Source of the DNA: Selaginella moellendorffii
Taxonomy: Eukaryota; Plantae; Lycopodiophyta
Direction: 5' to 3'
Length of the DNA stretch: 64,000 nucleotides
Assembly: GCF_000143415.4 (NCBI RefSeq)
Contig: NW_003314343.1
Span: 124,813 to 188,812 of the forward strand
In this document: positions 851-64,000 of the stretch, one piece after another
How positions within the stretch are numbered: position 1 is the first letter of the stretch
Layout of the letters: every line of letters begins with the position of its first letter
Position numbers and translations under genes: made by a program
Notes under the pieces: generated by a model
Told to the model about the DNA's origin: nothing
The model's input: the letters and a program-made list of their open reading frames with translations, nothing else
Database searches by the model: none

Positions 851-3800
851 ATATGCCATGACTCAATTTCATAAATTGATGCTTTAATTGAACTTTACAT
901 AAGTACATAGAGTTCTACCTTGCAAAAATTCGTCCACTAAGTCTTGTGCATTTGCTAGGTTCTCCTCTGGTTCCCATGTTACTTCATAGTGTGAAAATCC
1001 TTTCAACTTCACATAAAACTCCTTCACTTTGTGTCTTTATCACTTGCTCTTGCACGCATTGAGGATAGCCTCGACTTTGTATTCTTTTTCCCTTTGGATA
1101 ACCTCAGGTAAATGTCTTACTTGGTCTTTGCAAAACAGATCCTTAAAGTATGGCTTGAGCAAGTTCACATGGAACACAAGGTGCATCTTCCTCATCTCTC
1201 GAGGAAGTTGGAGGTGGTAAGCCACTTTATCAATTAAAGCCTCAATCTTGTAAGGCCCTACAAACTTACTTAAGGAATTCATTTTCAAGAATACATACAT
1301 TTTTACCTTTGGGTCAACTTCCAGCTGATCCCACTTGGTAACCTTAAATTTTTGGTGTTCAGCCACACCTTCTCCCCAGGTTGGAACTTTATGTCCCAGT
1401 GCTTCTGGTACGCATACTTGGTTTGCCTTTGTTGAGCCCATTCCAAAGAATTCTTCACTAGATTCCAAATTTTGAGTCTTTCCACTATTAATGCCTCCAC
1501 TGCGGATAACTCTCTATGATATTTGGCCATACTGAGTTCCATAGGACCTTCAATAGTTCACCCATTGATGATTCCCATGGACTCACCCCGATACTCGAAT
1601 GTGATGAGTTGTTATACCACATTTTCGCAAGTCCCAACTTACCCAATTGGTCTGGTCTCTAGAGACATAGCATCACAAATAATCCTTCAGCTGCCTATTC
1701 ACCCTTTATCCATCTCTCAAGAAGTGTTATTGCCATCAAACTTGACTTAATACTTAATACCTATTTGTAGGTGATAGGCTATGTTGAATTTCAATTTGGT
1801 GCAATACTATTTCAAAAGAGTTCTTCAGAACCTACTGGTGAAGATTTTATTTCGATCTGAAATAATCTCTTCTAGCCTTCCTTGCACTCGAACCACTTAT
1901 TCGAAGAACAACTTTGCCACACCTCCCATATCCACTTCTGTTATGGTGGGTATGAAATATGCCATATTTGAAAACAGATCCACCACCATGAATATCGCAT
2001 CAAACCCCTTGCTTTGAGGGAGTTCCATAATGAAATCTATGTAAGCAACCAAAGGGAACGACTCGAGAGACAATCTATAGGGGTTCAAATATAGAGGGAA
2101 AGGGCCCATGAATAAGAGTGCACCCCCTTTTCCAATCGGTTAAGGGTCTTGGGATATTTGGGGTTAAGCGTCCTTGGGTTTAAATAGTATTGGGCTGGGT
2201 GACCTCCCAGGAACTCCAAATTCAGGAGCTTACATTTATGTTTGTTTATAATAGATGAGTCCATTGTGTTTTGTATAACCTGTTTTCTCTTCCGTTAGTA
2301 GCTCACATCTCTAGTGAGCATCTCGCACCTCTTGGTTCCTTAGCAACACTTCTTGTGCTAAATCATCATTCTCATTTGCTATCCACACATCATCCCAAAA
2401 GGTTGTTATTGCGCTAGATAATGCCAACTTCAAGCTTGCCTTTCAACTTAGAGTATCTGCCACAATGTTGCTCTTCCTAGGTTTATATAGAATTTTGCAA
2501 TTGAACTCGGTCAAAGCATTGGCCCACTGACCTTATTTTCCTTTTAGGTCCGGCTGTGACAAGAAGTGTTTTGTTGCCACATTATCCATGTAAACTTTGA
2601 AGTGTCTTCCAAGGTAGTGTCACTACTCCTTGAGTGCCTTAACCACCGCAAACAATTCCTTCTCGTGGCCAGGCCACTTTTGTTGAGTCTTGTCAAACTT
2701 CTTTGAGAAGAGTGCCATTTAATGGTTGTTTTGCTTCAAAACTGTGCCCAATGCAAAGTCTGAAGCATCCCTTCCTTCCTCAGCTTCCCTTTAAGGTGGA
2801 TAAATGCCGCCTCACATTTTGCTATTTATCCCTTTTCCCGTTTGGTCTGTTAAAGGCAAGACTATTTCCAAATAGTGTTTGATAAACTTTTGGTAGTTGC
2901 ATAAGCCCAAAAATGCCCTCAACATGTGTATATGTGATGGTCGCTCCCATTCCTAGATTGCTTGGACTTTCTTAGGGTCCACCTTGAGCCCGTTCTTGCC
3001 CACCATATGCTCGAGAAACTTTACCTCTTGTTGAGCAAAGTCACATTTGCTCTCTTTAGCATATAACTTGTGTTCCCTTAGTTTCTCAAACACTTTCGTC
3101 AAGTGTTCGACATGCTCCTTTAACGTCTTGCTATAGATTAAAATGTCATCAATATAGATGACCACAAAGTGATCCAAATAAGGTCCAAAAGTGTGGTTCA
3201 TCAGCGCCAAAAATGTTGCCAATGTATTGCATAGCCCAAAGGGCATCACCAGAAACTCAAACCTCCCATACCTTGTTTGACAGGTTGTCTTCTCGACATC
3301 TTCCTTTGCTACTTTGATCTGGTAGTATCTTGATCTTAGGTCAATCCTCGAGAAGTATTTTGCCTTTCCTAACCTATCGAATAGGTCCTCAATCCTTGGT
3401 TAAGGGTATTTGTTTTTCTTTGTATAGTTGTTGAGCAACAGGTAGTCTATGCATATACGCATCTTTCTTTTTCACAAATAACACTGACATCTTATATGGC
3501 GATTTGTTCAACCTAACATACACTTTATCCACCAACTCTTCTAGTTGGTGTTTGAGCTCGTCAAGTTCCTTTTTGTTCAAATGATAGAGGGGACGAACCA
3601 CCGCCTTAGCACTTTTGATCAGCTCAATTTTATATTCTATAAACTCCTCTGGCATAATATTTTGAAATTGGTCCAACACCTGCTGTATCACTAAAGTTAT
3701 TTCTTTTATTCCCGTCTTTTTGTCACTCCTCACCGAGAGTAAATACAAAATTGCTATCATGGTTCCTTTAGTGAGTTGTCCTCTCATGGACACCAGGTTC

Positions 3801-4320
3801 AAACATAAGTGTTTGGCCTTACATTGTGCTACTTTTAGATCTTGGGCTTCCACCTTAGATCATTCTCCCCCGGCATTTGCCAATACCACAAGGTTCCTAC
3901 TTTGTCCATGCAAGGCTACCACAAAACGATTGAACTAATCCATCCCAAAGATTACGTTAAATCCTACCATGTTCAACACGGTGAAATCCACGTTTACTTT
4001 CCATGTCCCTATAATGAGTAACTTTGAGCTAGGGACTGGATCATGTACCTTAGTTTAGTTTTTGCTCGACTTCATGGCCATATTGACTATGGCCTTTTTT
4101 GGGTAGGGACATTGTCTTAAAAAGTGTCCTGCTTCACTGTAATTAAAGCATATGTTGTTTCCCACGCTACTAGCTGATTTGACCTTTTTATCCATGGGTT
4201 TGTCCCTTTTTGCCTAACTCTCCCACATACTTGCTCGTTGGCCACTAGATCTGCCTTTCCAAAACCCTGAAGACTCATTCTTAAAGAAACTCTTCTTGAA
4301 TTTCCCTTTGCAAGAATGCA
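851..4320 (-). mobile_element. Degenerate chromovirus Ty3/gypsy gag-pol remnant, same family as 55750-63282
   Basis: Fragments such as MPFGLCN...YIDDILIYS (RT), DFIMELP...VVD (IN), GPYKI and a chromodomain are collinear with and highly similar to 57900-61770. Many stops, frameshifts and deletions. Confidence 0.92.
2040..2234 (+). mobile_element. 195-bp solo LTR carrying a 5S rRNA-like internal promoter segment (Cassandra-like)
   Basis: TGTAAGC...GCTTACA termini. 2162-2217 GGTTAAGCGTCCTTGGG...TAGTATTGGGCTGGGTGACCTCCCAGGAACTCC resembles plant 5S rRNA box A-IE-box C. Interrupts the gypsy integrase with no TSD. Confidence 0.7.
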
Positions 4321-13300: not shown

Positions 13301-13387
13301 GATTTAGCTTTTTGCATTGTCTAAATCTACCATTTCCTTCCAGCTTTTTGTCATTTATCTTCTTTTGCTCTTTCTTCGTTCGTCTTC

Positions 13388-17300: not shown

Positions 17301-18009
17301 TCATGTTTTGACGTCTCAATTGGGGATTCGCCACACTTTCACAAGTGCTTATCATCCATAATCAGACAGTTTGGTGGAACGGCTCGTTCGGACATTCAAG
17401 GGGATGATTGTGAAATATGTGAACTTTCAGCATTCGGATTGGGATGGTTATTTGCCGTCTCTTCGGTATGCATATGTCACTGGGGTGCAGAGTTCTGTTG
17501 ATGCTTCACCATATAAACTCTTATATGGTCATGATCCAATATTACTAACGGAGCTGGGTTTACCTTCACGATTGCCAGGAGCTGCGGATGCTATGTCATG
17601 GATCAGTATTTGACGAGCATTATTCCACTTGTCCGAGCAGAGTCTGCCGAACACTTAGGCCGCATACAAGTGGGACAACAACGGTGGTACAACTCCCATC
17701 ATCGTCTACCTACGGAGTACAAAGTGGATGATTTGGTGTTAGTCCGTTTTCCCCATCTTACGGTACGTGGTTTATCTGGGGCTCCTTGCACAATGAAAAA
17801 GACCGTATCGGGTGTTGCGGCAAGTTGGACCACAAGTTTATGAGGTTCGGCATGATGTCCAGCAGGCCGATCCTCCAGAGATTCTACATGTGCAGTGGTT
17901 GAAACACTTCATACAAAGGGATCAGGAGCAATTAATACCATCTACAGATCTGCCAATGCCTCCTCCTGACGTTCCTCCAGATCCCGGCCTGTCTACAAGA
18001 GAACCCTGA
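14320..18009 (+). pseudogene. pol (PR, RT, RNase H, IN), disrupted
   Basis: DLILGMDWL, FCIDYRPLN, MPFGLNNAP, FIDDVLI, HDSPVLGGHMG and SDNGPAF motifs. Contains stops and a TRIM fragment. Confidence 0.88.
15834..16065 (-). mobile_element. Truncated TRIM (3' LTR 15834-15995, PPT and ~70 bp internal), same family as 246-850
   Basis: Reverse complement of about 620-850. Removing it restores pol WSPD|CEWVF. Confidence 0.9.
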
Positions 18010-23699: not shown

Positions 23700-24963
23700 T
23701 AGTCCCATTAGGACATGAAGAATGTACATATACGTTTATTGAAACATAGACTAACAATTGATTTTATATATAAAGCTTTAGAGGCCATAGTCTTTATGCA
23801 TAAAATTGTCACTGTCTAGACCAAATAAGGTAATAGATATATAACATTTCCCTCATAATCTGATGAGTGGAAGGTAGACTAGAAAGAAGTATTCACAAGA
23901 TCTAGAATGAGATTACAGAGCACTTGCTCATGATATTCACAATCTTAACCTCCCTTCAGAATAAACTAAATCATTGCTTAATCAAGCTAAAGAAAAACTT
24001 GAAAGAGAGCGAGTTGAAAGCATATTAGGTACACCTCAATAAAAAGGAAATCAAAAATCCCAATACAACTTTGATGGTCATTCAGAATACGTGAATCCAT
24101 ACGCTACTCCTCCTTGGCAGTATCGACATATAGAAAATGCCTCTGCTTCAGTTGAGAATAGTGGAACACAAAACAATTGAAGTGATTCCTCATAATAGGA
24201 AGAAGAGCTAAATTTACAGCCCTTACCCTCTGATGGTGATCTAGGTTCCCTTACAAACTAAACACCTATTTTGCTTATACTAGTTGCAAAATAGAGCATT
24301 TCCTGTTAAATAGCAATGAACATGATAGCAATTGTAGAAATAACAATAGGCCTTATCATCACATATCTATCCTTTTCTAGAATTAAAGAAGAGGACCCAC
24401 AATTATATATTGAGTAATACATAAAAGCAATTAAGCTCAATCAAATAGATAGGCAAAAAAAAACTTTTTCTTTATATGCTCAAAAACAAAGCCAATAATT
24501 AGTACTATAACAATGATGTCAAAAAGCTTGGTGCATTTGATGAGCAAACAAAGTTTTTCCTTAAGGCTTTCTCTATGAAAACAAACACAAGAAAAAACTC
24601 TGATGAGTTGCAAAAGCTTCATCAAGGAAAATCTGAGACAATTAAAGATTATACAACTCGATTCAACAACCATTATAAGCATTATAAAAACTTAGTATCA
24701 GACAAATGTGTCTACGCCTATACATATAGGGCCTAAAGAAAATTTATCATGAACATGCGATAAAGAGACCTCATACAAATTTTGATGACTTAAAAAAAAC
24801 CATAATTGCCTATCAATATCTTATAAAACAATATGATATAGTAGATATAGTGAAGTCAGACAAAAAGATGACTTTTCCTTGTTCTATAGATAGGGAAACC
24901 AATTGTCTAAGAAGCCTTAAATTGCAAATCAATCTTAAATAAGGGATTTGGTATATTAGATGC
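23700..24963 (+). mobile_element. Decayed retrotransposon gag-like sequence
   Basis: KLHQGKSETIKDYTTRF motif. Its continuation at 26800-26900 encodes two CCHC-like knuckles (CIRCKNENHNKEEC; CQIC..KGH). Confidence 0.55.
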
Positions 24964-27900
24964 AAGAAAATGTTAAGTCCCAGAGTTCGTACTCTGACCA
25001 AAAAGGTCATAATTCTTTATGAGAATTTTCTTTTGGTTGATCTCCAAACTTTAGCAAAATCGCTTCCACAACACCTACAAAATAAACTTGTCAAAGAATG
25101 AACAAGGCTTGCTAATAGTTGGTTGGGTCTCGTTACTGTAGAACCACAAAAATAATCACTAAAGCCATCGTGTGAAAGGAGGCACACAAATAGCAAGAGA
25201 AGGCACCACAAGATAGCCATGCTCACCTAGAAGACATGCCATAACTTTAAACTATATACCCTAAACCCGAACTATAAAAAGTAAATCTCTGTATAGACTT
25301 AAACTATATACCCTAAACCTGAACTCTAAAAGGTAAACCTTGTGTAAATTAGTCTCACACTGGAGGCAATGTAGCAACGGATTAGCTCTAGGTTGTAGAT
25401 TGAGTTTTCCTTGCCACATAGAAGAGTTGTTTGATTATAGATACAGTGTTTATATTAAAGTATGTAGCATACCTACATTTCCTACCATACAAGCTAGCAC
25501 TCCATCTGTGGAAAGTGCATGCCACTATAAGCACATTTTATTTGCTTTTGCGTCATTTTCCTTTTTAGTTGGTGCATCCATCCACTTTGAATAAAGTTGC
25601 TTAAATTTGTTATGGAAGTTAGACTTAATGCAGTGGCAATATTCATTGATACTTGTTGCCCAATAAAATTCATAGCTCTTTTCTCTACCTTGTTATGGGT
25701 AACTTTTATCACCTCCAAATGCTTATTGCATAGCAAACCAATTAACACCAACAGCATCTACCATGAAACCACAAATGTTGGGTTTCTTCTCTATTTGCTA
25801 TTCAACAACCTCAAACATATAAGTTGCCTAAGTTGAACATATAGCACTACTACTTACCCATTAGATATGGTTCACGCATGAACTAACCTCTCTTACCCCA
25901 ATCTTTCATCCCACAAAAGAAAGCAAGCCATAAGCCACAAGCTGTGAGCTATGAGTTGTTAGTGACCTAAGTGATTTCTGTGTTAATCTTGTTTTTTTTG
26001 GCGCTATTGAGAGTTAAGGATGATTTCTACTTCATCATCACTCATTTTATCTTAGCTTTCAAATTCAATTCTTCTTTGTTAGGCTTTAGTCATGATACAA
26101 ACACTAGGTAGCTCTTCTGCATCTCACCATTCTACCTCAATGTGACTAGCTGTAAGTTGTATATCCTTAAGGGGCTTATCATTCTTGCTTGATGATTCAG
26201 CTTAATTGTATGGCCTAGGAGTTTTAGCTTAATCATACTCTTTTGGCCTTTTATAATCTTTAAGCATATTATAGCCTTTAAACTGATTGTATTCTCTAGG
26301 TTGATTATAATCTTTAAGCCTATTTTCCTCATGGCTAGGTGGATAATCTCAAAAATTACTTATAGAAAAATAACCCCAATGGTCACCTTGCCTTTTAGCA
26401 TGTGGGTATCATGTTTGGCATTTCGATTATCATTGTAATCATTCCTTCTACGATAACTTCTATCGTCAAGTAGATAGTTTTACTTACATGTTATTTTATC
26501 AACTTAGACTACCTATTGGCTTCTTAATTGTTTAAACAAGGTTTTATATTCTTTAGTTATATGCCCCTCTTTTTTACAAATTTGGCACTTGATCAATTGC
26601 AATTTGCATTCTTCCTTGTTATGGCTTTTATTTTTGCATCTGATACACCAAATCCCTTATTTGAGATCGGTTTGCAATTTGAGGCTTTTTAGACAATCTA
26701 TAGGACTGATTGTAAGGTTTAGGGTTTAAGGTTTAGGGTTCCCTGTCTACACCAATTATCTAAAAAGCCTCAAATTGCAAACCAATCTCAAATAAGGGAT
26801 TTGGTGTATTAGATGCAAAAATGAAAACCATAATAAGGAAGAATGTAAATTGCAATTGATCAAGTGCCAAATTTGTGAAAAAAAGGGCATATAACTAAAG
26901 AATATTAAACCTTGTTTAAACAACCAGGAAGCCAATAGGTAGCCTGAGTTGATAAAATAAACGATAGAAGTTATTGTAGAAGGAATGATTACAATGATAA
27001 TCGAAGTGTCAAACATGAATACCCACGTGGTAAAAGGCAAGATGACCATTGGGATTATTTTTCTATAAGTAATTTTTGAGATTATCCACTTAGCCATGAG
27101 GAAAATAGGCTTAAAGACTATAATCAACCTAGAGAATACGATTAGTTTAAAGGCTACAATATGCTTAAAGATTATAAAAGGCCAAAAGAGTATGATTAAG
27201 CTAAAACTCCTAGGCCATACAATTAAGCTGAATCATCAAACAAGAATGATAAGCCCCCTAAGGATATACAATTTACAACTAGTCACATTGAGGTAGAATG
27301 GTGAGATGCAGAAGAGCTACCTAGTGTTTGTATCATGACTAAAGCCTAACAAAGAAGAATTGAATTTGAAAGCCAAGATAAAATGAGTGATGATGAAGTA
27401 GAAATCATCTCTAACTCTCAATGGCGCAAAAAAAAAACAACAAGATTAACAGAGAAATCACTTAGGTCACTAACAACTCATAGCTCACAGCTTGTAGCTT
27501 GTGGCTTGCTTTCTTTTGTGGGATGAAAGATTGGGGTACGAGAGGTCAGTTCATGTGTGAACCATGTCTAATGGGTAAGTAGTAGTGCTATATGTTCAAC
27601 TTAGGCAACTTATATGTTCGAGGTTGTTAAATAGCAAATATAGAAGAAACCCAACATTTGTGGTTTCATGGTAGATGCTATTAGTGTTAATTGGTTTGCT
27701 ATGTAGCAAGCATTTGGAGGTGATAAAAGTTACCCATAACAAGGTAGAGAAAAGAGCTATGAATTTTATTGGGCAACAAGTATCAATGAATATTGCCACT
27801 GCATTAAGTCTAACTTCCATAACAAATTTAAGCAACTTTATTCAAAGTGGATGGATGCACTAACTAAAAAGGAAAATGACGCAAAAGCAAATAAAATGTG

Positions 27901-28393
27901 CTTATAGTGGCATGCACTTTCCACAGATGGAGTGCTAGCTTGTATGGTGGGAAATGTAGGTGTGCTACATACTTTAATATAAACACTCTATCTATAATCA
28001 AACAACTCTTCTATGTGGCAAGGAAAACTCAATCTACAACCTAAAGCTAATCCTCCAGTGTAGGTTTACCTTTTAGAGTTCAGGTTTAGGGTATATAGTT
28101 TAAGTCTATACAAAGGTTTATCTTTTATAGTTCGGGTTTAAGGTATATAGTTTAAAGTTATGTCTTGTGGTGCCTTCTCTTGCTATTTGTGTGCCTCCTT
28201 TCACACAATGGCTTTAGTGATTATTTTTGTGGTTCTGCAGTAACGGACCCAGCCAACTATTAGCAAGCTTTGTTCATTCTTTGGTGTTGTGGAAGCAATT
28301 CTGCTGAAGTTTGGAGAGCAACCGAAAGAAGATTCTCATAAAGAACTATGACCTTTTTGGTCAGAGTACAAACTCTGGACTTAACATTTTCTT
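24964..28393. repeat. Large inverted repeat: arms 24964-26697 and 26755-28393, 57-bp spacer
   Basis: Mirror-image ORFs (25597-25836+ vs 27596-27835-; 26132-26332- vs 27096-27296+). Arms are reverse complementary along their length with scattered mismatches and indels. Confidence 0.95.
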
Positions 28394-48553: not shown

Positions 48554-49602
48554 GGCTGCCGCGCTTCTCTGGATCGACCTCGCAAGGATTTGCTGCCTAG
48601 AGATACTTGCTGATGCTTGCCGCTGGAGATTGGAAGCGCCAAACAAAGAACACTGCTTTATAAATCCCAACACCATCAGTGAGAGTGCCAGAAAAGCGCA
48701 CTGTCGAATCAAATGCCTCATACACCAATTCCCTCCCCCCAAAACAACTCACCGCTCACAGAGATGTCGAGATCTCTTGCTTTCCCCACTCGATCCGTGA
48801 TCTGGAGCTCAGCCACAATTCAATTTAAAACCTCCACCGTCCGGCTTCCCGGCACTAGCGCTTCGACCTAGACCAAACTAGAACTCTCAAAGGGTGATGT
48901 CACGCCACGCTGAATCTACGGCTGACGCTCAATGACGACGTGCTGACGTCACCTAATGCCATAAGAAATATCAATCGGCTCATAGTCTTCATAATGAGCA
49001 AATCTATGAGCAAATCCGTTCAAGGAAAAACACTCAACTGGAAGCAATTTGCACAGAAATTTGTACAGAAAATGCCTTTACTACCACAATGTTCCTTTCA
49101 CTCTGCTACTAAACTAACTCTTGCACTGCATACGCTAGGCCTCCTGAAGATGTAACCATGCAATGCTGCGCTCACAAGAAGCTTCCACAGGGGCATCTAT
49201 CAGCAAATGGTGCGTGTGAGCTATAAAGCAGCAGCTTTAGCAAGCGAAATCAACCAGGAAAACAGAGTGTGTCGTTTTTGCTTAAAAAACTAACATGGTA
49301 TCAGAACAAATGATGATCTAATGGGCAAAACAAGACCATACAACGAGCTATGCGACTCTAGATCGCTTGACCACTGGACAGCAGCAGAGGAAGAGGAAGA
49401 GCAATATTTGTGCTGTTGAGAACAACAGGGTTGGAGTGTGTCATTGCAGTAGCTTTTTATTTTGAACTTTCCTCAGCGTATTTCAATATGCTTTGTGCGA
49501 GAATGGAAGCACGCAAGGGTGCTTTGGTTGTCAAAGGACACCACCAGAGGCTTGGAGCAAGTAGGAATTTGTGGCACAGAACTGGGTGAGCCAAATTGCT
49601 TT

Positions 49603-52600
49603 TGAAACGAACAGGAGAGCGAACCCTAGGCCAACCTCCCAACCTTAAAGGGCCTTAAATTCCACAGGCTATAAAATATTTTTGAAATATTCCCATGGTT
49701 TGGGTCATTTTCCCCTCCCTTATGACTCAGCCACATACAACAGCCTCGAGAAGTTAATTGAGCCTCACATGAAGGGAGTCCAAGGCAATACAGCTATGTG
49801 TAAGTGATTAATTTTTCCATTTTACTTTAGTCACTTAACCACACCTCCGACCACTTGGGGGAGTCTCATTCACAACTTCCACAAGTCCCAGTTAGGAATT
49901 GGGGCTTGCTAGCCCCGAGAATGGCATCCATGCCACTCAACTTTTGCACTTGGTCTAAGTGCTCCACGTGTCCAATCCCATGATCGACACCCCAAGGTAC
50001 CACCGACATATCGGCTCATTACGCTGAGGCCATACCTATTCACCTTGGTCACACCAGTGGTCCAACACCACCTACATTGCAATCCCGTCTCTCATAGACT
50101 AGGCCATCCATCCATGAGTGATCATCCCAGATCCACTCCTTAGCATCCTTAGGATGCTCGCAGACTTAGGGAATAACCTTCCCCAATATCTCTTTTCCGG
50201 TCCCCACCAAGTCCCTCTCTGTCAATGGCTGTGTTCACCAACACTGCCACTGGATCAAGGCCCGCAGGCTAAGTCCAACTGTCCTCTAGGACTTCCTTAC
50301 TGGGTGACCGTGTCCTTTGTCACCACACCAGAGGGCTACTCCTCTTCCTTTCCACAGTCTGGGACTTTGGGATAACGTTTCGGAACACCGTGGCCTTACG
50401 CAAGCCTCATGGGTACTTTCCCCGCCTTTTGCCTTTAGGTGCTCTAGCCATGGGCTTAGAGCAAGGTTCCATTGAGCCACGACAGGTATCCAAGTAGGTA
50501 GTGCCACCCACACTTGGACTAGGAGCATCGGCCAATCGATCTCCCGAGGGAACTAGAGCCGGCTCTTGAACACTTCACTAAGCTACCCCGCTTGTCAGTC
50601 CGTGTTCACTCTAGTCTTGGACTTCCCAGTGAGCAGCTCATCACCCAACACTGGGTCCGGTCTTCCTGGGCCAAACTGGCCTTTCCTGGCCAAACTGGCT
50701 CCACTGCAGTCCTCCCCCTTACTATACTTTTGGAGCTCACCAAACCCCCCAGGGTCTGGGAGACAAACGCTTTGGGCTTTCACCCTCTCAAACTCGAACT
50801 CGGACTTGGACTTGGACTCGAACTCAGACTTGGACTCGGACTCGGACTTGGACTCGGATTCGGGCTCGGGCTCGGTCTTGGCCTCGGCCTCGGTCTCGGT
50901 CTCGGTCCCGGTCTCGGTCTCGGTCTCGGCCCCGGTCTCGGTCTTGGTCTCGGTCTCGGTCTCGACTTCGGACTCCATCTCGGGTCCATCTCGGACTCCA
51001 TCTCGGACTCCATCTCGGGTCCATCTCGGACTCCATCTCGGACTCCATTTCGGGTCTATCTTGGGTCCACCTTGGACTCCATCACGGACTCCACCTCGGA
51101 CTCCATCTCGGACTCCATCTCGGGTCCATCTCGGACTCCATCTCGAGTCCTTCTCGGACTCCACTTCGGACTCCACTTCAGACTCCAACTCGGGTCCATC
51201 TCGGACTCCACTTCGGACTCCAACTCGGGTCCATCTCGGACTCCACTTCGGACTCCACTTCGGACCCCAACTCGGGTCCATCTCGGACACTTCCACGTAT
51301 CATGTGTTGGTCCTTTTGTGTCCCTTTTTGGAGCCTCACTTATGGCTCGCTTCATGCTCGTTCCTCGAGCACTTCTTTGAGAGTTCCACTCCCACTCTCG
51401 ACCTTTTCAAGTTGGAACTTTTAGTCCAAACGTGTTACGCTCATTTGGCTTTTGCTTTTGCCACTACCACGTGGCACCCTTTCGGCTCCACTTTGGGGCC
51501 TAGGGATTTTGTGTCTCACACTATGGAGAAAAGATGTGCAAATGGCAACACCAACGTCGCAACAAATGGCCATGAAAGAAAGAAAGCAATACGGCTTTCT
51601 CACATGACAATATAGTCATGAAAACAAGAGAATGAGAATAAAACAAATGGCTCAAATCATATAGCAATACGGGTATAGAACTCAATTCTCCCCTTCCTTA
51701 GGAATGTTATCTAAGTCATAACCAAAACTTAGAAACACTCTCTTTACGTCATCCTCAGTTTCCCATGTAGCTTCGTCCATGGAATAACCATTCCATTGAA
51801 CTAACAACTCCCTAGTTGTCTTCCAACGTGTTTTCACCAATCTTTGAGCAAGAATATTAGTCGAATCAACATTCTCTACATCAATCTCTAGGACCTGGAT
51901 GATGGATTGATCCACAACATCACCAGAGTGCAAACACACTTTAAGCTTGCTTACATGGAACGTTGGATAAATCTTTAAACTAACTGGCAAGTCCAAAGTG
52001 TATGCAAGATCCCCCACATGTTGTAAAATTGTCCAATGCCCACAATAACATGGAGACAACTTAGCATTGCCACCTCCTTTTGGAGACCGTTGTGCATCTG
52101 ACAGCTTAAGAAAAACCTTGTCACCAACTTTGTACTCTTGATGACGACGATGCTTATTAGTTAATCTTTTGTCTCGCCCTTGAACTTGCCTTATGGTCAA
52201 CTTTGCTAACTCAAGCTTGTCTTGCATATCTTCCAAGAAATCACAAGCATGAAGTACCCGAACCAAAGCCAAATTCAAACTCATAGGAGACCTAGGCTCA
52301 TAGCTATACATCGCCATAAAAGGAGCTAATAGCCGATTGATGAGTGTTATTGTGAGCAAATTGAAGCAAGGCAAGTACTTCTCCCATACTCCCTATCGAA
52401 TCAAGTTTTCCACAAAAGATCGTAGCATATCTTCTAATAGCTGATTCATGTGCTCTGTTTGCCCATTAAATTGTGGATGCTCACCACTACTCATGCTTAG
52501 TTTAGTCTCTAGCTTCTCAAAGACCATTTGCCAAAACTTGGACGTGAACTTGGGATCCCGATCACTCACAATGTCACCCGGCAAACCATAGAGACTGAAT

Positions 52601-54797
52601 AACCGGTCTACAAATAACTGAGCAAGTTTAGAAGCTTTTATCGTTGTCTTCGTAAGGAAGAAATGAGCCATCTTCGTCAAACGATCCACAACAACCCAAA
52701 TAGAATCATTTCCTCGAAAGGTTTTGGGCAAACCAATGATAAAATCCATTGAGATGTTATCCCACTTATTCTCAAGTACACGTAAAAGATGATAGATGCC
52801 AGCAAGCTTATGATGATCAACTTTGACTGCCTAGCAGATCAAACAACCACGTACGTACTTCTCAACATCTGACTTCATCCCAGGCCAAAAGAAATGCCTC
52901 TTCACCAACATATACGTTCTCAATACCCCTGGATGCCCAGCACATGGCACATCATGACACTCAACCAAAATCCGTTTGATGAGTTTGTCAACACAAGGAA
53001 CCACTACACATCCCTTCTTCACCAGGATTCCATCTCATATGTCAAATGATGCAAACTTGTCACCCTTCAAATCTGTAGAGGAGTCCCTTAACAAAACCTT
53101 CACACGAATATCAATGATAAAGGAGTCGAAGTCAGCAAACTCCTTAAGCTCATCCAAGAGATCGCTGGATAGCTTCATGTACGAGATAAAATTTACCATC
53201 CTGGATAATGTATCAGCCACCTTATTGTCACTTCCATGCTTGTACTGGATCTTAACAGACATTTCTTGCAAGAACTCTTGCCAATGAGCAAGGCAGCCTT
53301 GAAGATCCACATTTTGAGAGACTAATGATCTGAATCTACATAGAAGTCCGATCCATATAGATAATGTTGCCATTCTCGAGTAGGTCAATTCCGTTGTGTG
53401 GCATCAAACTTGTGGCTTATGAATGTGAGAGAATGCCTAACTTGAAGCAATACGGCCCCAAAAGCACTATCACTCACATCATTATTTATAATTTCCACCA
53501 CAGTCACTTTATCATTCATTGACCCCTTCAAAACAATCCTTGCTCTGATGTCCAACTGTATGGCAATGAAAACAATTGCCCTCCACCTTGTCCTTCTCTC
53601 GCTGGTCCAAACGAAGTTTCTTAACTTTATTGCCATCATGCTTCAAGCCACAACGGAATAACGACTGTTTCTTCCCCAAATAGGAAGAATTAGCAAGCTG
53701 GTCATCACGTTGACTACTCTGTAGACTATCTCGTTGACTAGAGTTGACCAAATTGACTGATGGTTTGGGCAAAAAGATCTGAGCCTTAGTGATAGCATCA
53801 ATCAATGTTGCTGGAAAATCTTTCTTGACCTTCTGCTGCACATCCACTGAGCTCAATCCTTTGATGAAACATTGCACATTTAGCAGCTCATTATAGGTCT
53901 CCGTGAGACTAAGGAAAAGATTACGGAACTTGCGGGCATACGCATCCAAAGATAAAGTCCCTTGCCGGATCTTTAACAATTGGTTCACGAGATCAACCTC
54001 TTCAAACTTCTTCACAAACGAAGTGTGGAAAACCTTTGTCCTTGACCTTCTACTGCACATCCACTAAGCTCAATCCTTTGATGAAACATTGCACCTTTAA
54101 CAACTCATTATAGATGCCAAGAAAATATCATGGGACTTGCGGGCATACACATTCAAAGACAAAGTCCCCTGTTGGATCTCTAACAGCTGGTTCACAAGAT
54201 CAACCTCTTTAAACTTCTTAACAAACGAAGCGCAGAAAACCTTTGTCAAATCAGTCCAAGAAGTCAGCTTCAGATTAGCTTTGATGTAATTCTTCCATCA
54301 CGAAGAAGCATGGCCCGTAAGCTTTATCACAAAAAAGTCTATCTTCACCTTATCCTCACAAGAATTGTGAGACCAACAACTTTCCCACAATTCCAACCAA
54401 GAATCAACCTCTTGACTATCACAAACATCTGGTGATGATTTCCATTCCATGATACCATAATCCTTGACATACTTGACGTACCAATGGTAATCACGGACAT
54501 GAGATTGATTCAACCCTTGAGGGTCCATGCGAAGCAAGAAATCCTTAATGAGATTGACAGAATCCTTAACCCCCTTTATGTCGCTCTGAACCTCAGGAAT
54601 TTGGCATCCTTGCTGCACAAAGACATCATCAAGAGTTTCTTCCACATCGTCATGGCTATCATCACTAACGCCATACTCTTCATCAGGATCAATGTCTTGC
54701 TCACCCGCCATCCCCAAAAGAACATGCTACTCCGATACCAATGAAATGAACAAGAGAGCGAACCCTAGGCCAACCTCCCAACCCTTAAGGCGTTACA
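49603..54797 (-). mobile_element. Non-autonomous chromovirus-like gypsy element (gag, RH remnant, IN, chromodomain; no PR/RT seen)
   Basis: PBS TGGTATCGGAG (reverse complement ~54730-54740). LTR end repeated at 49603-49650 and 54742-54790. PPT 51685-51697. CFHCHTVGH, MDFIIGLP, SDRDPKF and LVQWNGYSMDEATWE motifs. Confidence 0.85.
49799..51520 (-). mobile_element. Solo LTR (1722 bp), TSD CTATG, inserted in the 3' LTR of the element above
   Basis: TG...CA termini. CTATG at 49794-49798 and 51521-51525. Homologous to 20446-22167. Confidence 0.92.
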
Positions 54798-56956
54798 AGC
54801 TCTATTTCGTTAAAGTGGGAATTGTCATTATCCCACTTGTAAAATAAGGTTTCCAAACCTTTATATAGTATATAAATATAACAAAATTCAACTGCATTGA
54901 GGCACATGCCATTTTATTTTAAACAAGGAAATGTCTACTCAATCACTTCTCCTCCCCCTGCCACTGCTTCACCTCTCTCTTCTCCTTGTCATCGTCGTCC
55001 AATTTCTTTCCATCCTTTTAATATTGGCTCAGTTGCTCCGAGTCTAGGTGGAGCCCAAGTCCCCATTCAATCTTTACTTTCCCCTTATTAATAAAACAAC
55101 TTCGTAGACTTCCAATAACATGCTGTAACACTTCTAGTATAATGCAAATCCTCTCAAAGAATTGTCTTTTAATATTAATACAATGGCATGGAACCCCATG
55201 CCATAATAAGTTACATTTTTAAATAAATACATGCCATCTCAGACTGTTATTTTTTGCCTCCAACGCCTATACAATAATCTTGGAATTTCATCACTCTCCA
55301 CACTATCAGGATTTAAACCCAATAGTAATGCCATCTCTTCTCCAATACGTCCACGCTCATGTTCAGTGGTCGAAGAACCCATTCGGTTGAGCAGATTATG
55401 GAGATGCGGATAGTGCTTGGCTAGACAATATACATGCCATAAATGATGACTGGTGTCTGTCCAATCAAATGGCTTCTGATATACCGTTCCATCTGCCATT
55501 TGGTTGATTTCTGCAGCCACCTCCTGGACTGATTGGTTCTCTATCACCATCGCTTCAAGCCGTTTTGCAAGGTCCCCCAGAACATACGGTTTCTTCTCCC
55601 TAGTTTCCATACTGCAAGAGATGGGGTGCACTGCATATGTGTGCGTGTTCGCTGCAGTTTTAATCGGCGAGTCATCGATGATGAGGATTTCACTTGACCT
55701 AGCAGTCCGGTTCATCACTACAGCCTCTGGCTTGACGAAGATGGGCTTGTGTAAGGAACCAACTCGCCGAGGTGTCGTAGGCTAAAGGAACCCCGAAAGC
55801 ATGACCAAAATGACAAAGAGTTCATCGGATGGGACCAAGTCGAAGATCGAGTCCAAGACCGACTCTAGGACCGAGTTCGAGATAGAGTCCGGAATCGAGT
55901 CCGAGACCAACTCGGGGACCGAGTTCGAGTCCGAGTTCGAGACCAAGTTCGAGACGGAGTCCGAGATCCGAAATCGGGTCCGAGACCGAGTCCGAGGTCG
56001 AGTCCGAGGTCGGGTCCGAGATCGGGTCCGAGATCGAGTCCGCGATCGAGTCCGAACCCGAATCCGAAGTCGGATCCGAAATCGGGTCCGAGATCGAGCC
56101 AGAGACTAAGTCCAAATACTAATACGGGTCAAGGGGTGAAAGCCCAAAGCGTGTGTCTCCCAGGGGGGGGGGGCTGCGGGGGGTTCCAAAAGTATAGTAG
56201 GGATAGTGAGGTCCAGGAACCAGTTTTGAAGGGACTCTCCAGTTGGGCTTCCAAACCGACTTGAGGTTGGGACTGGGACTAAGGGGCCTTGGGTGGGAGT
56301 GAGCATGGACTTGGCTGGTGCCGGAGGGGCCATCCAAGGAAGTGCTCAAGAGCAGCTCCCACTCCCGAAAGGGAAACCGATTGCGGTGCTCCCGGCTCAT
56401 GTGGAGTGGTGCCCCACTTGAGTACCATGCGGCTCATTGGTCCTTGCCCTTCCTAGGGGCTTGGGCCTTCCTTCGGGACGGAAGTGGGGGGCGAGAGGTA
56501 CCCATACCGGGCCGTTAGGCCACGGTGTTTCACCCCGGCGTCCCGAAGCAAGTGTTGCACTCAAGACTTGGGATTTAGAGGGTCCCATGATCAAGTCTTG
56601 TGGTACCAAGGGATGTTAGGAACCTGGAAGCTTGGTGTGCTTGGCTGCTTGTGCTTGCGGGGAGTGTAGCCGAACCTTAAGTCCAGTCTAACTCGGGGAG
56701 GGGGATTGGGAGTGATTTGGGAATCCGTGGAAGGATGGCTAACACTCCGTTGCTCGTGCAGTGAGTAGTTGAAACCAAGTAGGAGTTGGTACCATAGGCG
56801 AGAACCTTGGCAAGGGAACTTAGCAAAAGCCAAGGCAGTGTTGGACGGATAGACGAGGTAAGCTGGCAAATTGGAAAGGAAAAATTTGTGGCTTACAATT
56901 TGGTATCGGAGCCTTTATCTCAGTTCTAGCGAAGGATAGAGGCGGATTGCTGGGAG

Positions 56957-59900
56957 ATGGCAAGGGCAGGGCGTAAGCGAACCCAGGCGGAGACGGAACC
57001 TCCGCCGGAGCTGGAGCCTCCGGTTGAACAAGAGGCTATGGATGAGGAATCCTTGCATGAGGAGGACTCTAGTGAGGAAACTTCCAAACAGGAGTCCGGT
57101 GGCGAGGTTCGGTCGTCCAAGGCTCGATTGGACGTGCTAGAAGGACAGTTGGCACAGACCAATGCCCTGCTGGAGACTCTCGTACGCAAGTTAAAGCGTG
57201 ACGAGAAGCGGAAGAAAAAGCGAAAGACTGCGGATGCTGGCAGCGCAGAAGGTGCGGACCCTTCGGCAGGGACTGAGGCAAAACCAGACAAGGTCGAACA
57301 GACCGAAGTGGAATCAGTCCCTCAGGCAGTTCCCAAGTACAAACCAAAGCCCCCACCGGTGTTCAAGGGAGTGAACGACTATAAGGTTGTGGAGGATTGG
57401 TTTTACGATATGGAGGACTACTTCCGAGCGTTGCGGTTACCGAGCTCGGAGAAGGTCCCATGTGCAAAACCATACTTGGCAGATAATGCCAAGTCTTGGT
57501 GGAGAACAATGGAGGCCAACAAAGGACCGGTGGCCACCTGGGACATGATGAAGGCGAGGATCCGCGCGACATACGTTCCTCTGAATGCCACTCTGCATCT
57601 GAGAGATGAGCTGAGTAGGCTGAAGCAGACTGGAACCATCCAGGAATATGTGAATGGGTTCATGGCAAAGAGGATACTTGTCACGGACATGGGGGATATG
57701 GATGCGTTCCATGCCTTTATATCAGGTTTGCAAACCTGGGCTCGCGGTGAGGTGATGCGCTGGAACCCGACCAACTACAAGGAAGCGTTGGATGCGGCCA
57801 TCAAGGTGCATTTCAACGATAACCTGTGAAAGGGGAACACGACGGGGTCGGGATCCACGTTTCACAAAGGGGCCAAACCGAGGGGAACATATAGCAAGGG
57901 GAAATTCAAGAAGAGTTTCTCTAAGAATGAGTCCTCGGGGTTCCGGAAAGGCAAATCCGGTGGCCAGCGAGCGAGTACGTGGGGAAGTCAAGCGAAAAGA
58001 GACAAACCCACGGATAAGAAGGTCAAGTCGTATAGCAGCGTGGGCAACAACGTATGCTACAACTGCGGCGAAGCGGGACACTTCTCAAGGGAATGTCCCT
58101 ACCCGAAGAAGGCCAGAGCCAATATGGCCATCAAGTCGGGTGAAGTCCAAACTGAGGTATGTGATCCAGTCCCTAACTCAAAGTTACTCATTACACGAGC
58201 AACTTTGGTAGAGAGTCGTTCGCGACATCTACTAGCCCTCCGAGGGAAGCTCGGAGGTAGCTTTGTTAAGATCCTTATTGACACGGGTGCTTCGGATAAT
58301 TTTGTGGCTGCAGACATAGTCCGGCAAGCCGGACTAACGGTGCAGCGGCTAGGCGAACCAAGGACTATAGAGTTTGTTCAAGGTAGCCAAAGCACCGATG
58401 AGGTACTTCGACAAGCGAGAGTCGAAGTGGGGACATGGAAAGTGGACATGGATTTCACCGTCTTGGACATGGCGGGATTTGACGTGATCTTCGGAATGGA
58501 TTGGTTTAATCGGTTCGTGGTGGCCCTGCATGGACAAGGTAGGAACCTTGTGGTATTGGCGAATGCCCAAGGAAGAAGATCTAGGGTGGAGGCCCAGGAT
58601 CTAAAGGTAGGGCAAAGCAAGGCCAAAGAGTCATGTTTAAACCTGGTGTCCACGAGAGGACAACTCACTAAAGGAACTAAGGCAGCCTTTTTGTGCTTAC
58701 TCTCGGTGAAGAGTGACAAAAAGACAAGAACAGAAGAAGTACCTTTAGTGATCCAGCAGGTGCTGGACCAATTCCAGGATACCATGCCAGAGGAGCTACC
58801 GGCGGGGTTGCCCCCCGCACGACCGATAGAACATAAGATTGAGCTGGTCGAGGGTGCTGAGGCGGTGGTTCGTCCACCCTATCGATTGAACGAAAAAGAA
58901 CTCAAGGAGCTCAAGAGCCAACTAGAGGAGTTGGTGGACAAAGGGTATGTTAGGTTGAGCAAGTCGCCGTATGGGGCGCCGGTGCTATTTGTGAAAAAGA
59001 AAGATGGATCTATGCGCATGTGCATAGACTACCGGTTGCTCAACAAGTATACCAAGAAGAACAAGTACCCTTTGCCAAGGATCGAGGACCTGTTCGATAG
59101 GTTGGGAAAGGCAAAATACTTCTCGAGGATTGACCTAAGGTCAGGATACTACCAGATCAGGGTAGCTGAGGAAGATGTCGAGAAGACAACCTGTCGAACG
59201 AGGTATGGGAGCTTTGAGTTTTTGGTGATGCCCTTTGGGCTGTGCAATGCGCCGGCAACGTTTTCGGCGTTGATGAACCACATCTTTGTACCCTATCTGG
59301 ATCGCTTCATGGTCGTCTATATTGACGACATCTTGATCTATAGCGAGACGCTAGAGGAGCATGCCGAACACTTGGCGAAGGTGTTTGAGAAACTAAGGGA
59401 ACACAAACTGTATGCTAAAGAGAGCAAATGTGACTTTGCTCAACAAGAGGTAAAGTTTCTCGGGCATGTGGTGGGCCAGGACGGGCTCAAGGTGGACCCG
59501 GAGAAGGTCCAAGCGATCCAGGAATGGGAACGACCATCGAATGTACATGAGTTGAGGGTGTTCCTGGGGCTATGCAACTACTATCGAAAGTTTATCAGAC
59601 ACTATTCGAGAGTAGCCCTGCCCTTAACGGACCAAACAGGAAAAGGGAAGATGGTATGGACAGCGGAATGCGAGGCGGCATTCGTCCACCTCAAAGGGAA
59701 GTTGAGGAAGGCTCCGGTGTTGGCATTACCAGACTTTGGTAAGGACTTTGAGGTAGACACAGATGCTTCGGACTTTGCGTTGGGCGCAGTTTTGAAGCAA
59801 GACAACCATCCAGTAGCGTTCTTCTCGAAGAAGCTGGACAAGGCTCAACGGAAGTGGCCTGCCCACGAGAAGGAATTGTTTGCGGTGGTCAAGGCGCTCA

Positions 59901-61729
59901 AGGAGTGGCGACACTACCTTGGGAGACACTTCAAGGTTTACACGGACAGTGTGGCAACGAAACACTTCTTGTCACAGCCCGACCTAAGGGGAAAACAAGG
60001 TCGGTGGGCCAATGCTTTGGCCGAGTTTGATTGCGAGATCCTGTACAAGCCTGGGAAGAGCAACATCGTGGCAGATGCGCTAAGTCGAAAAGCGAGCTTG
60101 AAGTTGGCGATATCTAGCGCGACAGCAACCTTTTGGGACGATGTGCGGACCGCATACGAGAGTGATGGTCTAGCACAAGAAGTGTTGCTGAGGAATCTGG
60201 AGGCGCGGGAAGCTCACCAGAGAGGTGAGCTGCCAACGGAAGAGAAAACGGGCTATGCGGAACGCAACGGACTCATATATTACAAGCAAACGAGGGTGTA
60301 TGTTCCAGAAGGGGAACTAAGGAAAGTAGCCTTGGAAGAGTGTCATGATGGACCTCTTGCGGGACACGGCGGAGTGCCCAAGACGATGGGCTTACTCAAA
60401 AGGAAGTATCACTGGCCGGATATGGCTAAGGACGTCCAAGACTATGTAAAGACATGTCCAACATGTCAGCAGGTCAAAGCCGTGACGAAGGCTAGTGGGG
60501 GCTTGTTGCAAAGCATCCCCATTCCAGATCGTCCGTGGAAATGTCTCACGATGGACTTCATCACGGGACTACCCCCAAGCGAGGGGTTCGATGCGATATT
60601 CGTGGTGGTGGACCGATTTTCAAAGATGGCACATTTCATACCCACCACAACGGATGTGGATGCGGAAGGTGTGGCGAAGCTGTTCTTCGAACAAGTGGTT
60701 CGAGTGCGGGGAAGGCCGGAAGAGATTATCTCAGATTGAGATAAGATCTTCACCAGTAGGTTCTGGAGGACACTCCTAGAACAGTATCGCACCAAGTTGA
60801 AATTCAGCACGGCCTATCACCCACAGACAGGTAATGGGTATTGAGTCAAGATTGATGGCACTAACACTTCTTGACAGACGGACAAACGGAAAGGGTGAAT
60901 AGGCAGCTGGAGGATTATTTGCGATGCTATGTCTCGGGAGACCAGACCGACTGGGTAAGTCATTTGGGACTTGCGGAAATGTGTTATAACAACTCACCAC
61001 ATTCGAGCATCGGGGTGAGTCCATGGGAAGTCATCAATGGGCGAGCTATTGAAGGTCCTGTGGAACTCGGCGTGGCCGAGTATCATGGAGAGTTACCCGC
61101 AGTGGAGGCATTCACGGCGGAAAGACTCAACATTTGGAATCTAGTGAGGGATTCCTTGGAACGAGCTCAACAAAGGCAAACCAAGTACGCGAACCTAAAG
61201 CGCCGGGATGTAGAGTTCCAAGCTGGGGAGAAGGTGTGGCTGAACACCAAGAACCTTAGGCTACCAAGTGGGATCAGCCGAAAGTTGACCCAAAGGTAAA
61301 AATGCATGTATTCCTGTAAATGAATTGATCTTGAGTTCCTTAAGCAGGTTCGCGGGGCCTTACGAGATTGAGGCACGAATCGGTAAAGTGGCTTACTGAC
61401 TCCGACTTCCTCGAGAGATGGGGAAGATGCACCCAGTGTTCCATGTGAACTTACTCAAGCCGTACTTTGAGGATCCGCTTCGCAAGGACCAAGTAAGACC
61501 TTTACCTGAGGTTATCCAAGGGGAAGAGGAATACGAAGTCGAGGCCATCCTCAATGCGCGCAAGAGCAAGCAACAAGGACGCGAGGTGAGAGAGTTCCAT
61601 GTGAAGTGGAAAGGATTTCCACACTGCGAAGCAACATGGGAACCGGAGGAGAACCTAGCGAACGCGCGAGATCTAGTGGAGGAATTTCTGCAAGGCAGAA
61701 CTCTATGTACTTATGCAAAGTTCAATTAA
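56957..61729 (+). CDS. gag-pol polyprotein (CA, zinc knuckle, PR, RT, RH, IN, GPY/F, chromodomain) with predicted introns 60831-60877 and 61296-61347 and three in-frame TGA lesions
   Basis: One frame from 56957 to 60830 with TGA at 57827 and 60737. [22 protein letters not shown] and HHCC motifs. Removing the insertions gives HPQT|DGQTE and KLTQR|FAGPY. Third TGA at ~61397. Chromodomain YEVEAIL...VKWKGF...TWEPEENL. Confidence 0.9.
60831..60877 (+). other. Predicted 47-nt spliceosomal intron in integrase
   Basis: AG|GTAATG...CACTAAC...GACAG|. Removal restores frame and the HPQTDGQTER motif. Confidence 0.85.
61296..61347 (+). other. Predicted 52-nt spliceosomal intron before the GPY/F module
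   Basis: AG|GTAAAA...AAGCAG|GT, AT-rich. Removal restores KLTQRFAGPY. Confidence 0.85.
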
Positions 61730-64000
61730 AAATATATCAATTTGCAAAGTTGAGCAAGTGGCATATGTTGGGACCCGAAGGCGCGCCGAAGGTGAGCTAA
61801 TTAGCATGGGTTAGCTAGGTCGACCAGGTGTAGGGAGCTACGCCCGACTCCCTGCGGGGATGTCGAAACCGTAGACGTATTCTACGGAGGTTGGGTTCGA
61901 GTCCCAACCCCCTAGTAAAGCAAGGCTGGGTTCAAGTCCCGACCCTATACTAGGACGTGGTGAGGGGAGGAGTATAGGGACACCTATATTCCGTTGTCAT
62001 GGGCTCTTGGCCGGGGAGGCTAACTTAGGCACACCGCTAAGTGGGGGGATGCCCCCGGAGACATGGTCAACAAGTCGTAGGATAAAATGAGACGTTCGAT
62101 GTGGGCATCGAACTTCTTCTATGGGTGGTGGAGTTGTAAGGAACCAACTCGCCGAGGTGTCGTAGGCTAAAGGAACCCCGAAAGCATAACCAAAATGACA
62201 AAGAGTTCATCGGATGGGACCAAGTCGAAGATCGAGTCCAAGACCGACTCTAGGACCGAGTTCGAGATAGAGTCCGGAATCGAGTCCGAGACCGACTCGG
62301 GGACCGAGTTCGAGTCCGAGTTCGAGACCGAGTTCGAGACGGAGTCCGAGATCCGAAATCGGGTCCGAGACCGAGTCCGAGGTCGAGTCCGAGGTCGGGT
62401 CCGAGATCGGGTCCGAGATCGAGTCCGCGATCGAGTCCGAACCCGAATCCGAAGTCGGATCCGAAATCGGGTCCGAGATCGAGCCAGAGACTAAGTCCAA
62501 ATACTAATACGGGTCAAGGGGTGAAAGCCCAAAGCGTGCGTCTCCCAGGGGGGGGGGGCTGCGGGGGGTTCCAAAAGTATAGTAGGGATAGTGAGGTCCA
62601 GGAACCAGTTTTGAAGGGACTCTCCAGTTGGGCTTCCAAACCGACTTGAGGTTGGGACTGGGACTAAGGGGCCTTGGGTGGGAGTGAGCATGGACTTGGC
62701 TGGTGCCGGAGGGGCCATCCAAGGAAGTGCTCAAGAGCAGCTCCCACTCCCGAAAGGGAAACCGATTGCGGTGCTCCCGGCTCATGTGGAGTGGTGCCCC
62801 ACTTGAGTACCATGCGGCTCATTGGTCCTCGCCCTTCCTAGGGGCTTGGGCCTTCCTTCGGGACGGAAGTGGGGGGCGAGAGGTACCCATACCGGGCCGT
62901 TAGGCCACGGTGTTTCGCCCCGGCGTCCCGAAGCAAGTGTTGCACTCAAGACTTGGGATTTAGAGGGTCCCATGATCAAGTCTTGTGGTACCAAGGGATG
63001 TTAGGAACCTGGAAGCTTGGTGTGCTTGGCTGCTTGTGCTTGCGGGGAGTGTAGCCGAACCTTAAATCCAGTCTAACCCGGGGAGGGGGATTGGGAGTGA
63101 TTTGGGAATCCGTGGAAGGATGGCTAACACTCCGTTGCTTGTGCAGTGAGTAGCTGAAACCAAGTAGGAGTTGGTACCATAGGCGAGAACCTTGGCAAGG
63201 GAACTTAGCAAAAGCTAAGGCAGTGTTGGACGGATAGACGAGGTAAGCTGGCAAATTGGAAAGGAAAAATTTGTGGCTTACAGCTTGCTACCCCTCACAT
63301 GGACCATAGTCAAGCAATCCTCCTGCATTAGGAGAAAGTCAAATGGTAATATTACTCGCGTCTGATCGTGCATCATCTGTAGCAACGTTAATGCATTGTG
63401 GCGCATCATGGATGTCCAAAATCCCAATTGCAAATTGAACCCGGCCCTCTGTTTTAAGTGTCGCATGGTCATTATTAGATCCCGCAGTTTCTCCCGTGTG
63501 ATTAATGTGAATCTGTCTCTTTTGACCAACTTGCGACCGCAGGCTTTGGAGGGTGCAGTGACATTCGAGGACGAGCCACGCTCATGGGAGAAAAGGACAC
63601 CGTTCAGATCAAAAACGATATAGTACCTTCGCCGTGACTCTGAAATGAAATGCGTCAACATAAAAAATGGTACAAGTCAATTTTACCATCTACAATATTA
63701 GCGAATGGTGCTCCCGATGGTCGTTGAGAGGGTTTTGGTCGAGGAAACGTGAAGGGCGGAAATACTCTCCTCTGCAATGTGGGGTCAATCGCATCCGGTG
63801 GCGTGTGGGCACATGCCATTTCAGCTGTAGACTCTGGTACAACTGGCTCAACAGTGGCATGGGGTGGTTCTGATGGCGTGTGATCACACGCCATTTCAGC
63901 TGGTGCCTCCATTGGCAAAGTGGACATGACCGAACAGGCAGCAGGGGCGGTGTAGGGAGGTTCCAACGGCGCGTAGTCAGACGATTGGGCACACGTTGGA

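Follow-up and report, generated by a model that had tools for sequence, protein, structure and literature searches.

Four introns in a Selaginella Ty3/gypsy chromovirus and a candidate splice switch between Gag and Gag-Pol

We found four introns, termed A to D, in a Ty3/gypsy chromovirus within a 64,000-nucleotide stretch of Selaginella moellendorffii DNA (the window, whose numbering is used throughout). The splice joints of all four are present in contigs of one run that is probably RNA. In the spliced form the primer-binding site (PBS) is lost with intron A, the Gag frame ends at a stop just after the joint of intron B, and the DTG codons of the protease are lost with intron B. The integrase frame stays open only when introns C and D are removed. 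We consider it probable that this four-intron element sorts one transcript into three jobs, namely Gag only, Gag-Pol and copyable genomic RNA.

The element and its match to SM1-Galahad

The element lies on the forward strand, and an old decayed copy of the same family is present near the start of the window. Their parts are as follows.

55750-63282, plus strand: whole element, Gypsy-type chromovirus, 7533 bp
55750..56897, plus strand: 5′ LTR, 1148 bp, TG...CA, with 12-nt unit arrays and a poly-G tract
56901..56913, plus strand: PBS, 13 bp, tRNA-Met type, within intron A
56957..58156, plus strand: gag, 400 codons from the first ATG to donor B; Pfam Retrotrans_gag and zf-CCHC
58055-58096, plus strand: zinc knuckle of gag, Pfam zf-CCHC
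58157..60830, plus strand: pol, with protease, RT, RNase H, integrase zinc finger and first part of the integrase core; Pfam and tblastn
61348..61729, plus strand: last exon, with integrase C-terminus and chromodomain; stop at 61727-61729
62135..63282, plus strand: 3′ LTR, with a purine-rich tract just upstream
851..4311, minus strand: old decayed copy, 80-83% alike, retaining introns C and D and the GT of donor B and lacking the part that matches 58194-58429

A 5-bp target duplication (GCTTG) flanks the element at 55745-55749 and 63283-63287, and the two LTRs differ at 11 positions, all of them transitions. The order of Pfam domains is that of Gypsy elements (gag, zinc knuckle, protease, RT, RNase H, integrase, chromodomain), and the last exon matches Chromo with an E value of 8.8e-17 and SH3_Tf2-1 in part. 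The element thus has the TG...CA LTRs, target duplication, PBS, PR-RT-RH-IN order and C-terminal chromodomain of Ty3/gypsy chromoviruses. The window copy itself encodes neither whole Gag nor Gag-Pol, because it has in-frame TGA codons at 57827 (gag), 60737 (pol) and 61397 (last exon). The arrays of 12-nt units in the LTRs (55800-56140 and 62190-62520) form open low-complexity frames on both strands.

In size, primer site and ORF lengths the element matches SM1-Galahad, a Galadriel-clade chromovirus of S. moellendorffii (PMC3350952), and we infer the assignment from the published description. SM1-Galahad is described as 7.5 kb long, with LTRs of more than 1 kb that contain poly-G and with a 13-bp tRNA-Met PBS (PMC3350952); these features agree with the 7533 bp, the 1148-bp LTRs and the PBS at 56901-56913 found here. 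Its main ORF has 3885 bp (1295 aa) and is followed by short ORFs of 316 and 309 bp, the last with the chromodomain (PMC3350952). In the window, the distance from the ATG at 56957 to the stop at 60842 is likewise 3885 nt when the internal stops of this copy are read through, and the short ORFs have 318 and 309 nt, ORF2 being off by 2 bp. What was published as three separate ORFs (PMC3350952) we read as exons of a spliced gene: the published ORF ends coincide with the stops inside introns C and D. In the portion of PMC3350952 available to us neither 'intron' nor 'splic' has a match, and SM1-Galahad is described there without introns. The sister element SM2-Galahad has one unbroken ORF of 4731 bp in the same source (PMC3350952) and therefore lacks introns C and D. 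Reading the three ORFs of SM1-Galahad as exons would correct the published annotation, and pol genes elsewhere that seem 'broken' or frameshifted may, where host introns are short, also be intact spliced genes. The intron-free SM2-Galahad and the intron-bearing SM1-Galahad would form a natural pair for studying intron gain and loss.

Between 28400 and 48700 the window contains compact host genes, whose introns (read by eye) are 47-111 nt long; we take these genes to encode PP2C, an OBERON-like protein, chitinase, bZIP, a Na/Ca-exchanger-like protein, an aldose-epimerase-like protein and pirin. Two solo LTRs of one family, 1.7 kb each, lie at 20446-22167 and 49799-51520 (minus) and have 5-bp target duplications read by eye; their arrays of 12-nt units resemble the arrays in the Galahad LTR at ∼70%. 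A second decayed Gypsy element (∼49600-54800, minus) has short terminal repeats, a Met-type PBS at ∼54741 and a duplicated 217-bp gag piece; most of its protease and RT are missing, and a solo LTR is inserted near its 3′ end. A further decayed Gypsy element at 13325-17900 (plus) has gag, protease and RT. The window also contains a fold-back structure of ∼3.4 kb (24900-28380), built of nested inverted repeats, two of them 621 and 418 nt long at 96-97% and the others smaller, and fragments with helicase-like and Rep-like motifs at 10560-12170 and 18160-19660 (minus), which presumably are Helitron remains.

Splice joints and splice-site strength

We compared four of 23 listed runs with the element, namely X1, a set of contigs taken as RNA by guess (25.8 million letters in 70015 contigs), and the raw reads of the true RNA runs X14, X15 and X16. 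Three X1 contigs matched the element and are 95-99% alike to the window copy, which assigns them to a sister copy. All three carry joints, four in total, and every joint has GT..AG ends.

56858..56923, plus strand: intron A, 66 nt; X1 contig 1, depth 7.86; covers the final 40 nt of the LTR, the PBS and 10 nt past it
58157..58313, plus strand: intron B, 157 nt (1 mod 3); joint 58156/58314, X1 contig 2, depth 7.73
58317..58319, plus strand: TAG ending Gag after removal of intron B; one added codon (Thr), ...QTE-T-stop
60831..60877, plus strand: intron C, 47 nt; X1 contig 3 and one raw RNA read of X14
61296..61347, plus strand: intron D, 52 nt; X1 contig 3; in the C-terminal part of the integrase

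Of 740600 random deletions of 40-200 nt, 7365 (1%) allow a GT..AG reading, so that four out of four would be expected with a probability of ∼1e-8, and the joints are not deletion noise. Intron B is seen in a single contig, from a run that was guessed to be RNA; this contig has at least 255 nt of flank on each side of the joint 58156/58314 and continues for at least 765 nt past the acceptor, and the downstream contigs are equally deep. Joints A, B, and C with D are spread over three separate contigs, and no contig links A to B, C or D. The raw RNA runs X14, X15 and X16 had 10, 2 and 0 reads on the element, none of them at intron B, and intron C was spliced in one of the 12. The X14 reads lie mostly on the 3′ part of the element (60863-61405 and 61768-62120), in both mate directions. 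RNA with intron B retained was not seen in X1, where the bin 58148-58328 had a depth of 1.03 against 1.02 from the spliced flanks alone; contig assemblies drop rare forms, and X1 is therefore compatible with both B-retained RNA and minor use of an acceptor at 58211. An AATAAA-like hexamer is absent from 58320-59100, and contigs cannot show RNA ends.

We scored splice sites with a matrix built on 31 introns of host genes, which were identified by eye and are 47-111 nt long (median 60). The bZIP introns failed a frame check (2 stops), and the ranks held when the matrix was rebuilt without these 9 introns (22 left). Donors A, B, C and D ranked 1, 2, 4 and 14 among the 313 GTs of the element, which makes donor A its strongest, and acceptors D, B, A and C ranked 1, 2, 7 and 39 among 479 AGs. 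With the 22-intron matrix the acceptor of intron B (...GCTGCAG, ending at 58313) ranked 3 of 479. A branch-like motif is present in 11 of the 31 host introns and absent from the other 20, and for this reason we discarded the branch-point motif as splice evidence. Minority codons of the ORF supply the +3 A of donor B, the acceptor AG and the stop (GTA 0.18, GCA 0.24 and ATA 0.27), a comparison that was chosen after the fact. Introns C and D have repeated letters at their ends, with GACAG both before the donor and at the end of intron C (60826-60877) and the four letters AG|GT shared at intron D (61294-61349); these are possible traces of intron gain.

The first-pass annotation had proposed a splice switch at the gag-protease junction, starting at the donor GAG|GTATGT at 58157. 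This donor has the sequence claimed and is the one used in the X1 contig; with its rank of 2 among 313 GTs, it exceeds what chance would give. As that annotation had also supposed, gag and pol share one frame, since tblastn with four full-length relatives gave a single frame-1 alignment from gag to 60829. The proposed logic, in which splicing gives Gag only, retention keeps Gag-Pol open and the effect is the reverse of that of the integrase introns, is supported by the contig spliced at the predicted donor. The acceptor had been placed differently, at 58211, leaving a micro-intron of 55 nt. The motifs named for it are present (CCCTAAC at 58171-58177, TAG at 58209-58211 and TAG at 58233-58235), and a 55-nt cut would indeed read ...QTE|RVVRDIY-stop, but the only joint from this donor goes to 58314 and the intron has 157 nt. 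None of the suggested junctions from 58156 to 58200, 58212 or 58214 is among the joints listed from X1 and X14-X16. The acceptor at 58211 scored −1.2 bits and ranked 150 of 479 (95 without the nine bZIP introns).

The old copy had been cited as keeping the donor in the form AAG|GTACAT. This sequence is present, but positions +4 and +5 differ and the G at +5 is lost, leaving a weaker donor; as the region matching 58194-58429 is missing, the old copy is uninformative on either acceptor. It has no third-position change in the 12 codons after donor B, too few to use. We also searched for relatives more widely. A protein search with gag gave no match, and one with the gag-protease junction gave a single distant match. 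Among the 150 best protein representatives only P0004 belongs to the same family (66% over 94 aa, decayed), and it is colinear through intron B. A metagenome scan with gag-protease and a viral scan with RT had no match, and a metagenome scan with RT identified 80 loci with 49-68% identity, too distant to test intron B. Ten of these 80 loci have both the knuckle and the protease motif, only two of them in one open frame, and no locus with both motifs has a donor as strong as that of intron B.

Consequences for Gag, Pol and copying

Retention of intron C stops the frame at 60842 and retention of intron D stops it at 61297. Intron C splits the HPQTDGQ motif of the integrase, and the chromodomain is in frame with the integrase only once both introns are removed. 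All four full-length relatives aligned by tblastn in three pieces, with frame changes at introns C and D; together with the joints in X1 contig 3, this bears out the first-pass view that the integrase introns are real. The HPQTDGQ motif is unbroken in all 38 loci that reach it among the 80 distant metagenome loci. Introns C and D are present in both copies in the window (55750-63282 and 851..4311), and the published sequence of the family, which was reconstructed from many copies, ends at 3885 bp, exactly at the stop inside intron C. The genomic RNA must therefore be wholly unspliced.

Intron A contains no ATG and creates none. With the strongest donor of the element at intron A and the PBS inside this intron, RNA that enters splicing would lose the ability to be copied. 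Only RNA retaining intron A has the primer site and would be reverse-transcribed, which is likely why the DNA copies keep their introns. Splicing of intron A would accompany that of introns C and D on the same molecules and so gate reverse transcription. Copying would be expected to rid LTR elements of their introns, and an intron spanning the PBS would be a simple and testable way round this. The two solo LTRs of the related family give no support for conservation of donor A: they have no GT at the position aligned by eye with it, only GAG|GTGTGG 6 nt before.

Intron B starts at the end of gag, 55-60 nt past the zinc knuckle, and holds the DTG codons at 58280-58288. In an unbroken copy, Gag from the B-spliced form would have 401 residues. 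Among 21 frame-shifting AGs the acceptor of intron B gives the shortest Gag tail; an early stop is common, and ten of the 21 give one within 7 codons. Intron B is facultative by necessity, because it is also protease coding sequence with the DTG codons. Its removal would give a Gag-only mRNA, translated in excess and likely the source of surplus Gag for particle assembly, and RNA in which intron B is kept and introns C and D are removed would be the mRNA for whole Gag-Pol. When pol was compared with the X1 copy, 33 of the 40 listed differences (40 of 141 shown) were synonymous, which points to purifying selection on pol. The mRNA with intron B kept and introns C and D spliced must then have been made during the spread of the family. 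If a Gag-only RNA extended as far as the 3′ LTR, two exon joints would lie 2.5 and 2.9 kb past its stop (58317-61347), and such an RNA is a likely target of nonsense-mediated decay. The B-spliced form, putatively the Gag-only RNA, was the only form assembled in X1 despite these decay-prone downstream joints.

Splicing of intron B could instead be cryptic or imposed by a host with very short, permissive introns, in which case it would disable the RNA and be no strategy of the element. This could account for X1 having assembled only the spliced form and for intron B (157 nt, 48% GC) being longer than all 31 host introns, more GC-rich and not AT-rich, and the frequency of early stops among the alternative acceptors is also in its favor. 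The strong donors at 60225 and 59203 in pol go unused, which fits cryptic splicing as well. We nevertheless consider this unlikely: the donor sits at the end of gag shortly after the zinc knuckle, both sites of intron B rank second in 5.4 kb, and the Gag tail has only one codon. Moreover, a single-ORF element needs a source of excess Gag, with no frameshift or stop between gag and pol here, and the integrase of the family already depends on splicing.

The RNA status of X1 was only guessed, and its contigs might be DNA that arose either when a spliced RNA was copied back as a processed retrocopy or through deletions in one genomic copy. We judge this very unlikely, given that four precise GT..AG ends exclude ordinary deletions, that a true RNA read shows intron C spliced, and that X1 has the size and contig number given above; a retrocopy would itself prove that splicing took place. 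It is slightly less probable still that intron B is always spliced and that the family supplies Gag and borrows Pol from a sister such as SM2-Galahad. Such borrowing would fit the lack of a retained form in X1, and in the available text of PMC3350952 a survey found no intact SM1-Galahad copy, with SM2-Galahad having its one unbroken ORF; against it, the synonymous differences in pol require past translation of pol, and introns C and D are placed cleanly in an intact integrase. Least probable of all is the 55-nt intron 58157-58211 as the main Gag-only splice, which has in its favor a length that fits the host introns, a host acceptor (41968) sharing the TTTGGTAG ending with 58211, a good branch motif in CCCTAAC and the loss of rare forms from contigs, and which is opposed by the observed joint at 58314, the low rank of 58211, a branch A that lies just 19 nt past the donor and 36 nt before 58211, with GAG 58199 in between, and the host introns that do without a branch motif. 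The acceptor at 58211 may serve as a minor one.

Our preferred reading remains that of a transcript sorted by splicing into Gag-only, Gag-Pol and genomic forms. A broader version, to which we give even chances, is that the LTR element is a true multi-intron gene whose integrase needs host splicing, in which intron B sets Gag versus Pol and intron A bars spliced RNA from copying, so that the pools for translation and replication would be sorted by the spliceosome alone. The family, with its hundreds of copies, would then have two frame-breaking integrase introns and an intron over the primer site.

Comparison with known systems

We looked for similar cases in the openly accessible article literature, through listings and the opening parts of abstracts. 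Within this scope we found no introns reported for SM1-Galahad, no Gag-only splice in a plant Gypsy element or chromovirus, and no obligatory integrase introns combined with a PBS-removing intron; the accessible portions of PMC2864245, PMC13148404 and PMC12477816 had nothing on such splicing. According to the part seen of a 2025 review, plant LTR elements are generally without introns apart from Ogre and EVADE (PMC12786077), and CRR is said in excerpts of two other papers to splice out rt (PMC6317226, PMC3735527). Penelope-like elements have introns that survive retrotransposition, including one across the repeat/body boundary, as far as the text available of PMC8557442 describes them; unlike the element here, they have no tRNA PBS and no integrase. 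The Ogre elements (Ty3/gypsy, Tat) resemble introns C and D in that a plant Gypsy intron has to be removed for the full polyprotein (PMC6317226, PMC3735527, PMC12786077, each in part). In contrast to our element, Ogre is not a chromovirus and, in the portions of these sources at hand, has a single intron between the protease and RT ORFs, splicing of which yields the long product. Here, protease and RT are in one open frame with no joint between them.

The major splice donor of foamy viruses is located before the PBS. Foamy viruses also make Pol from a spliced RNA, as outlined in the available part of PMC7828637, but there splicing takes out gag so that Pol is made, opposite in effect to intron B.

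The closest parallels to intron B are in Ty1/copia elements. BARE1 of barley carries a short facultative intron (104 nt) where gag ends, and its RNA is divided into separate pools (PMC3735527, available text). As proposed here, a stop follows within a few codons, the spliced RNA is near full length and it is excluded from copying. BARE1 differs in being Ty1/copia and, within the same text, in that the copied RNA comes from a second TATA and has the R region, with no intron gate over the PBS and no obligatory pol introns reported (PMC3735527). In EVD/ATCOPIA93 and other Arabidopsis Ty1/copia elements, splicing of an intron over the protease gives a Gag-only (shGAG) RNA with early termination, and no such conserved splicing was seen in Arabidopsis Ty3/gypsy elements, according to the main text consulted of PMC5580714. 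EVD and the element described here have in common one ORF, an intron over the protease, a frameshift with a stop soon after the joint, and a Gag-only RNA. EVD may differ in that its splicing is coupled to early polyadenylation, whereas the spliced contig runs on for at least 765 nt here, and the text seen of PMC5580714 describes no integrase introns or PBS intron. By analogy, intron B would work like the switch of EVD and BARE1, yet the element is not Copia: it has Gypsy domain order and a chromodomain. Splicing as the way to obtain Gag in excess of Pol has been documented for Copia elements and, in the same part of PMC5580714, for none of the Gypsy elements of Arabidopsis. If true, the chromovirus described here would represent convergence of a Gypsy element, supported by RNA, on the Copia-type splice solution to the excess of Gag over Pol in single-ORF elements.
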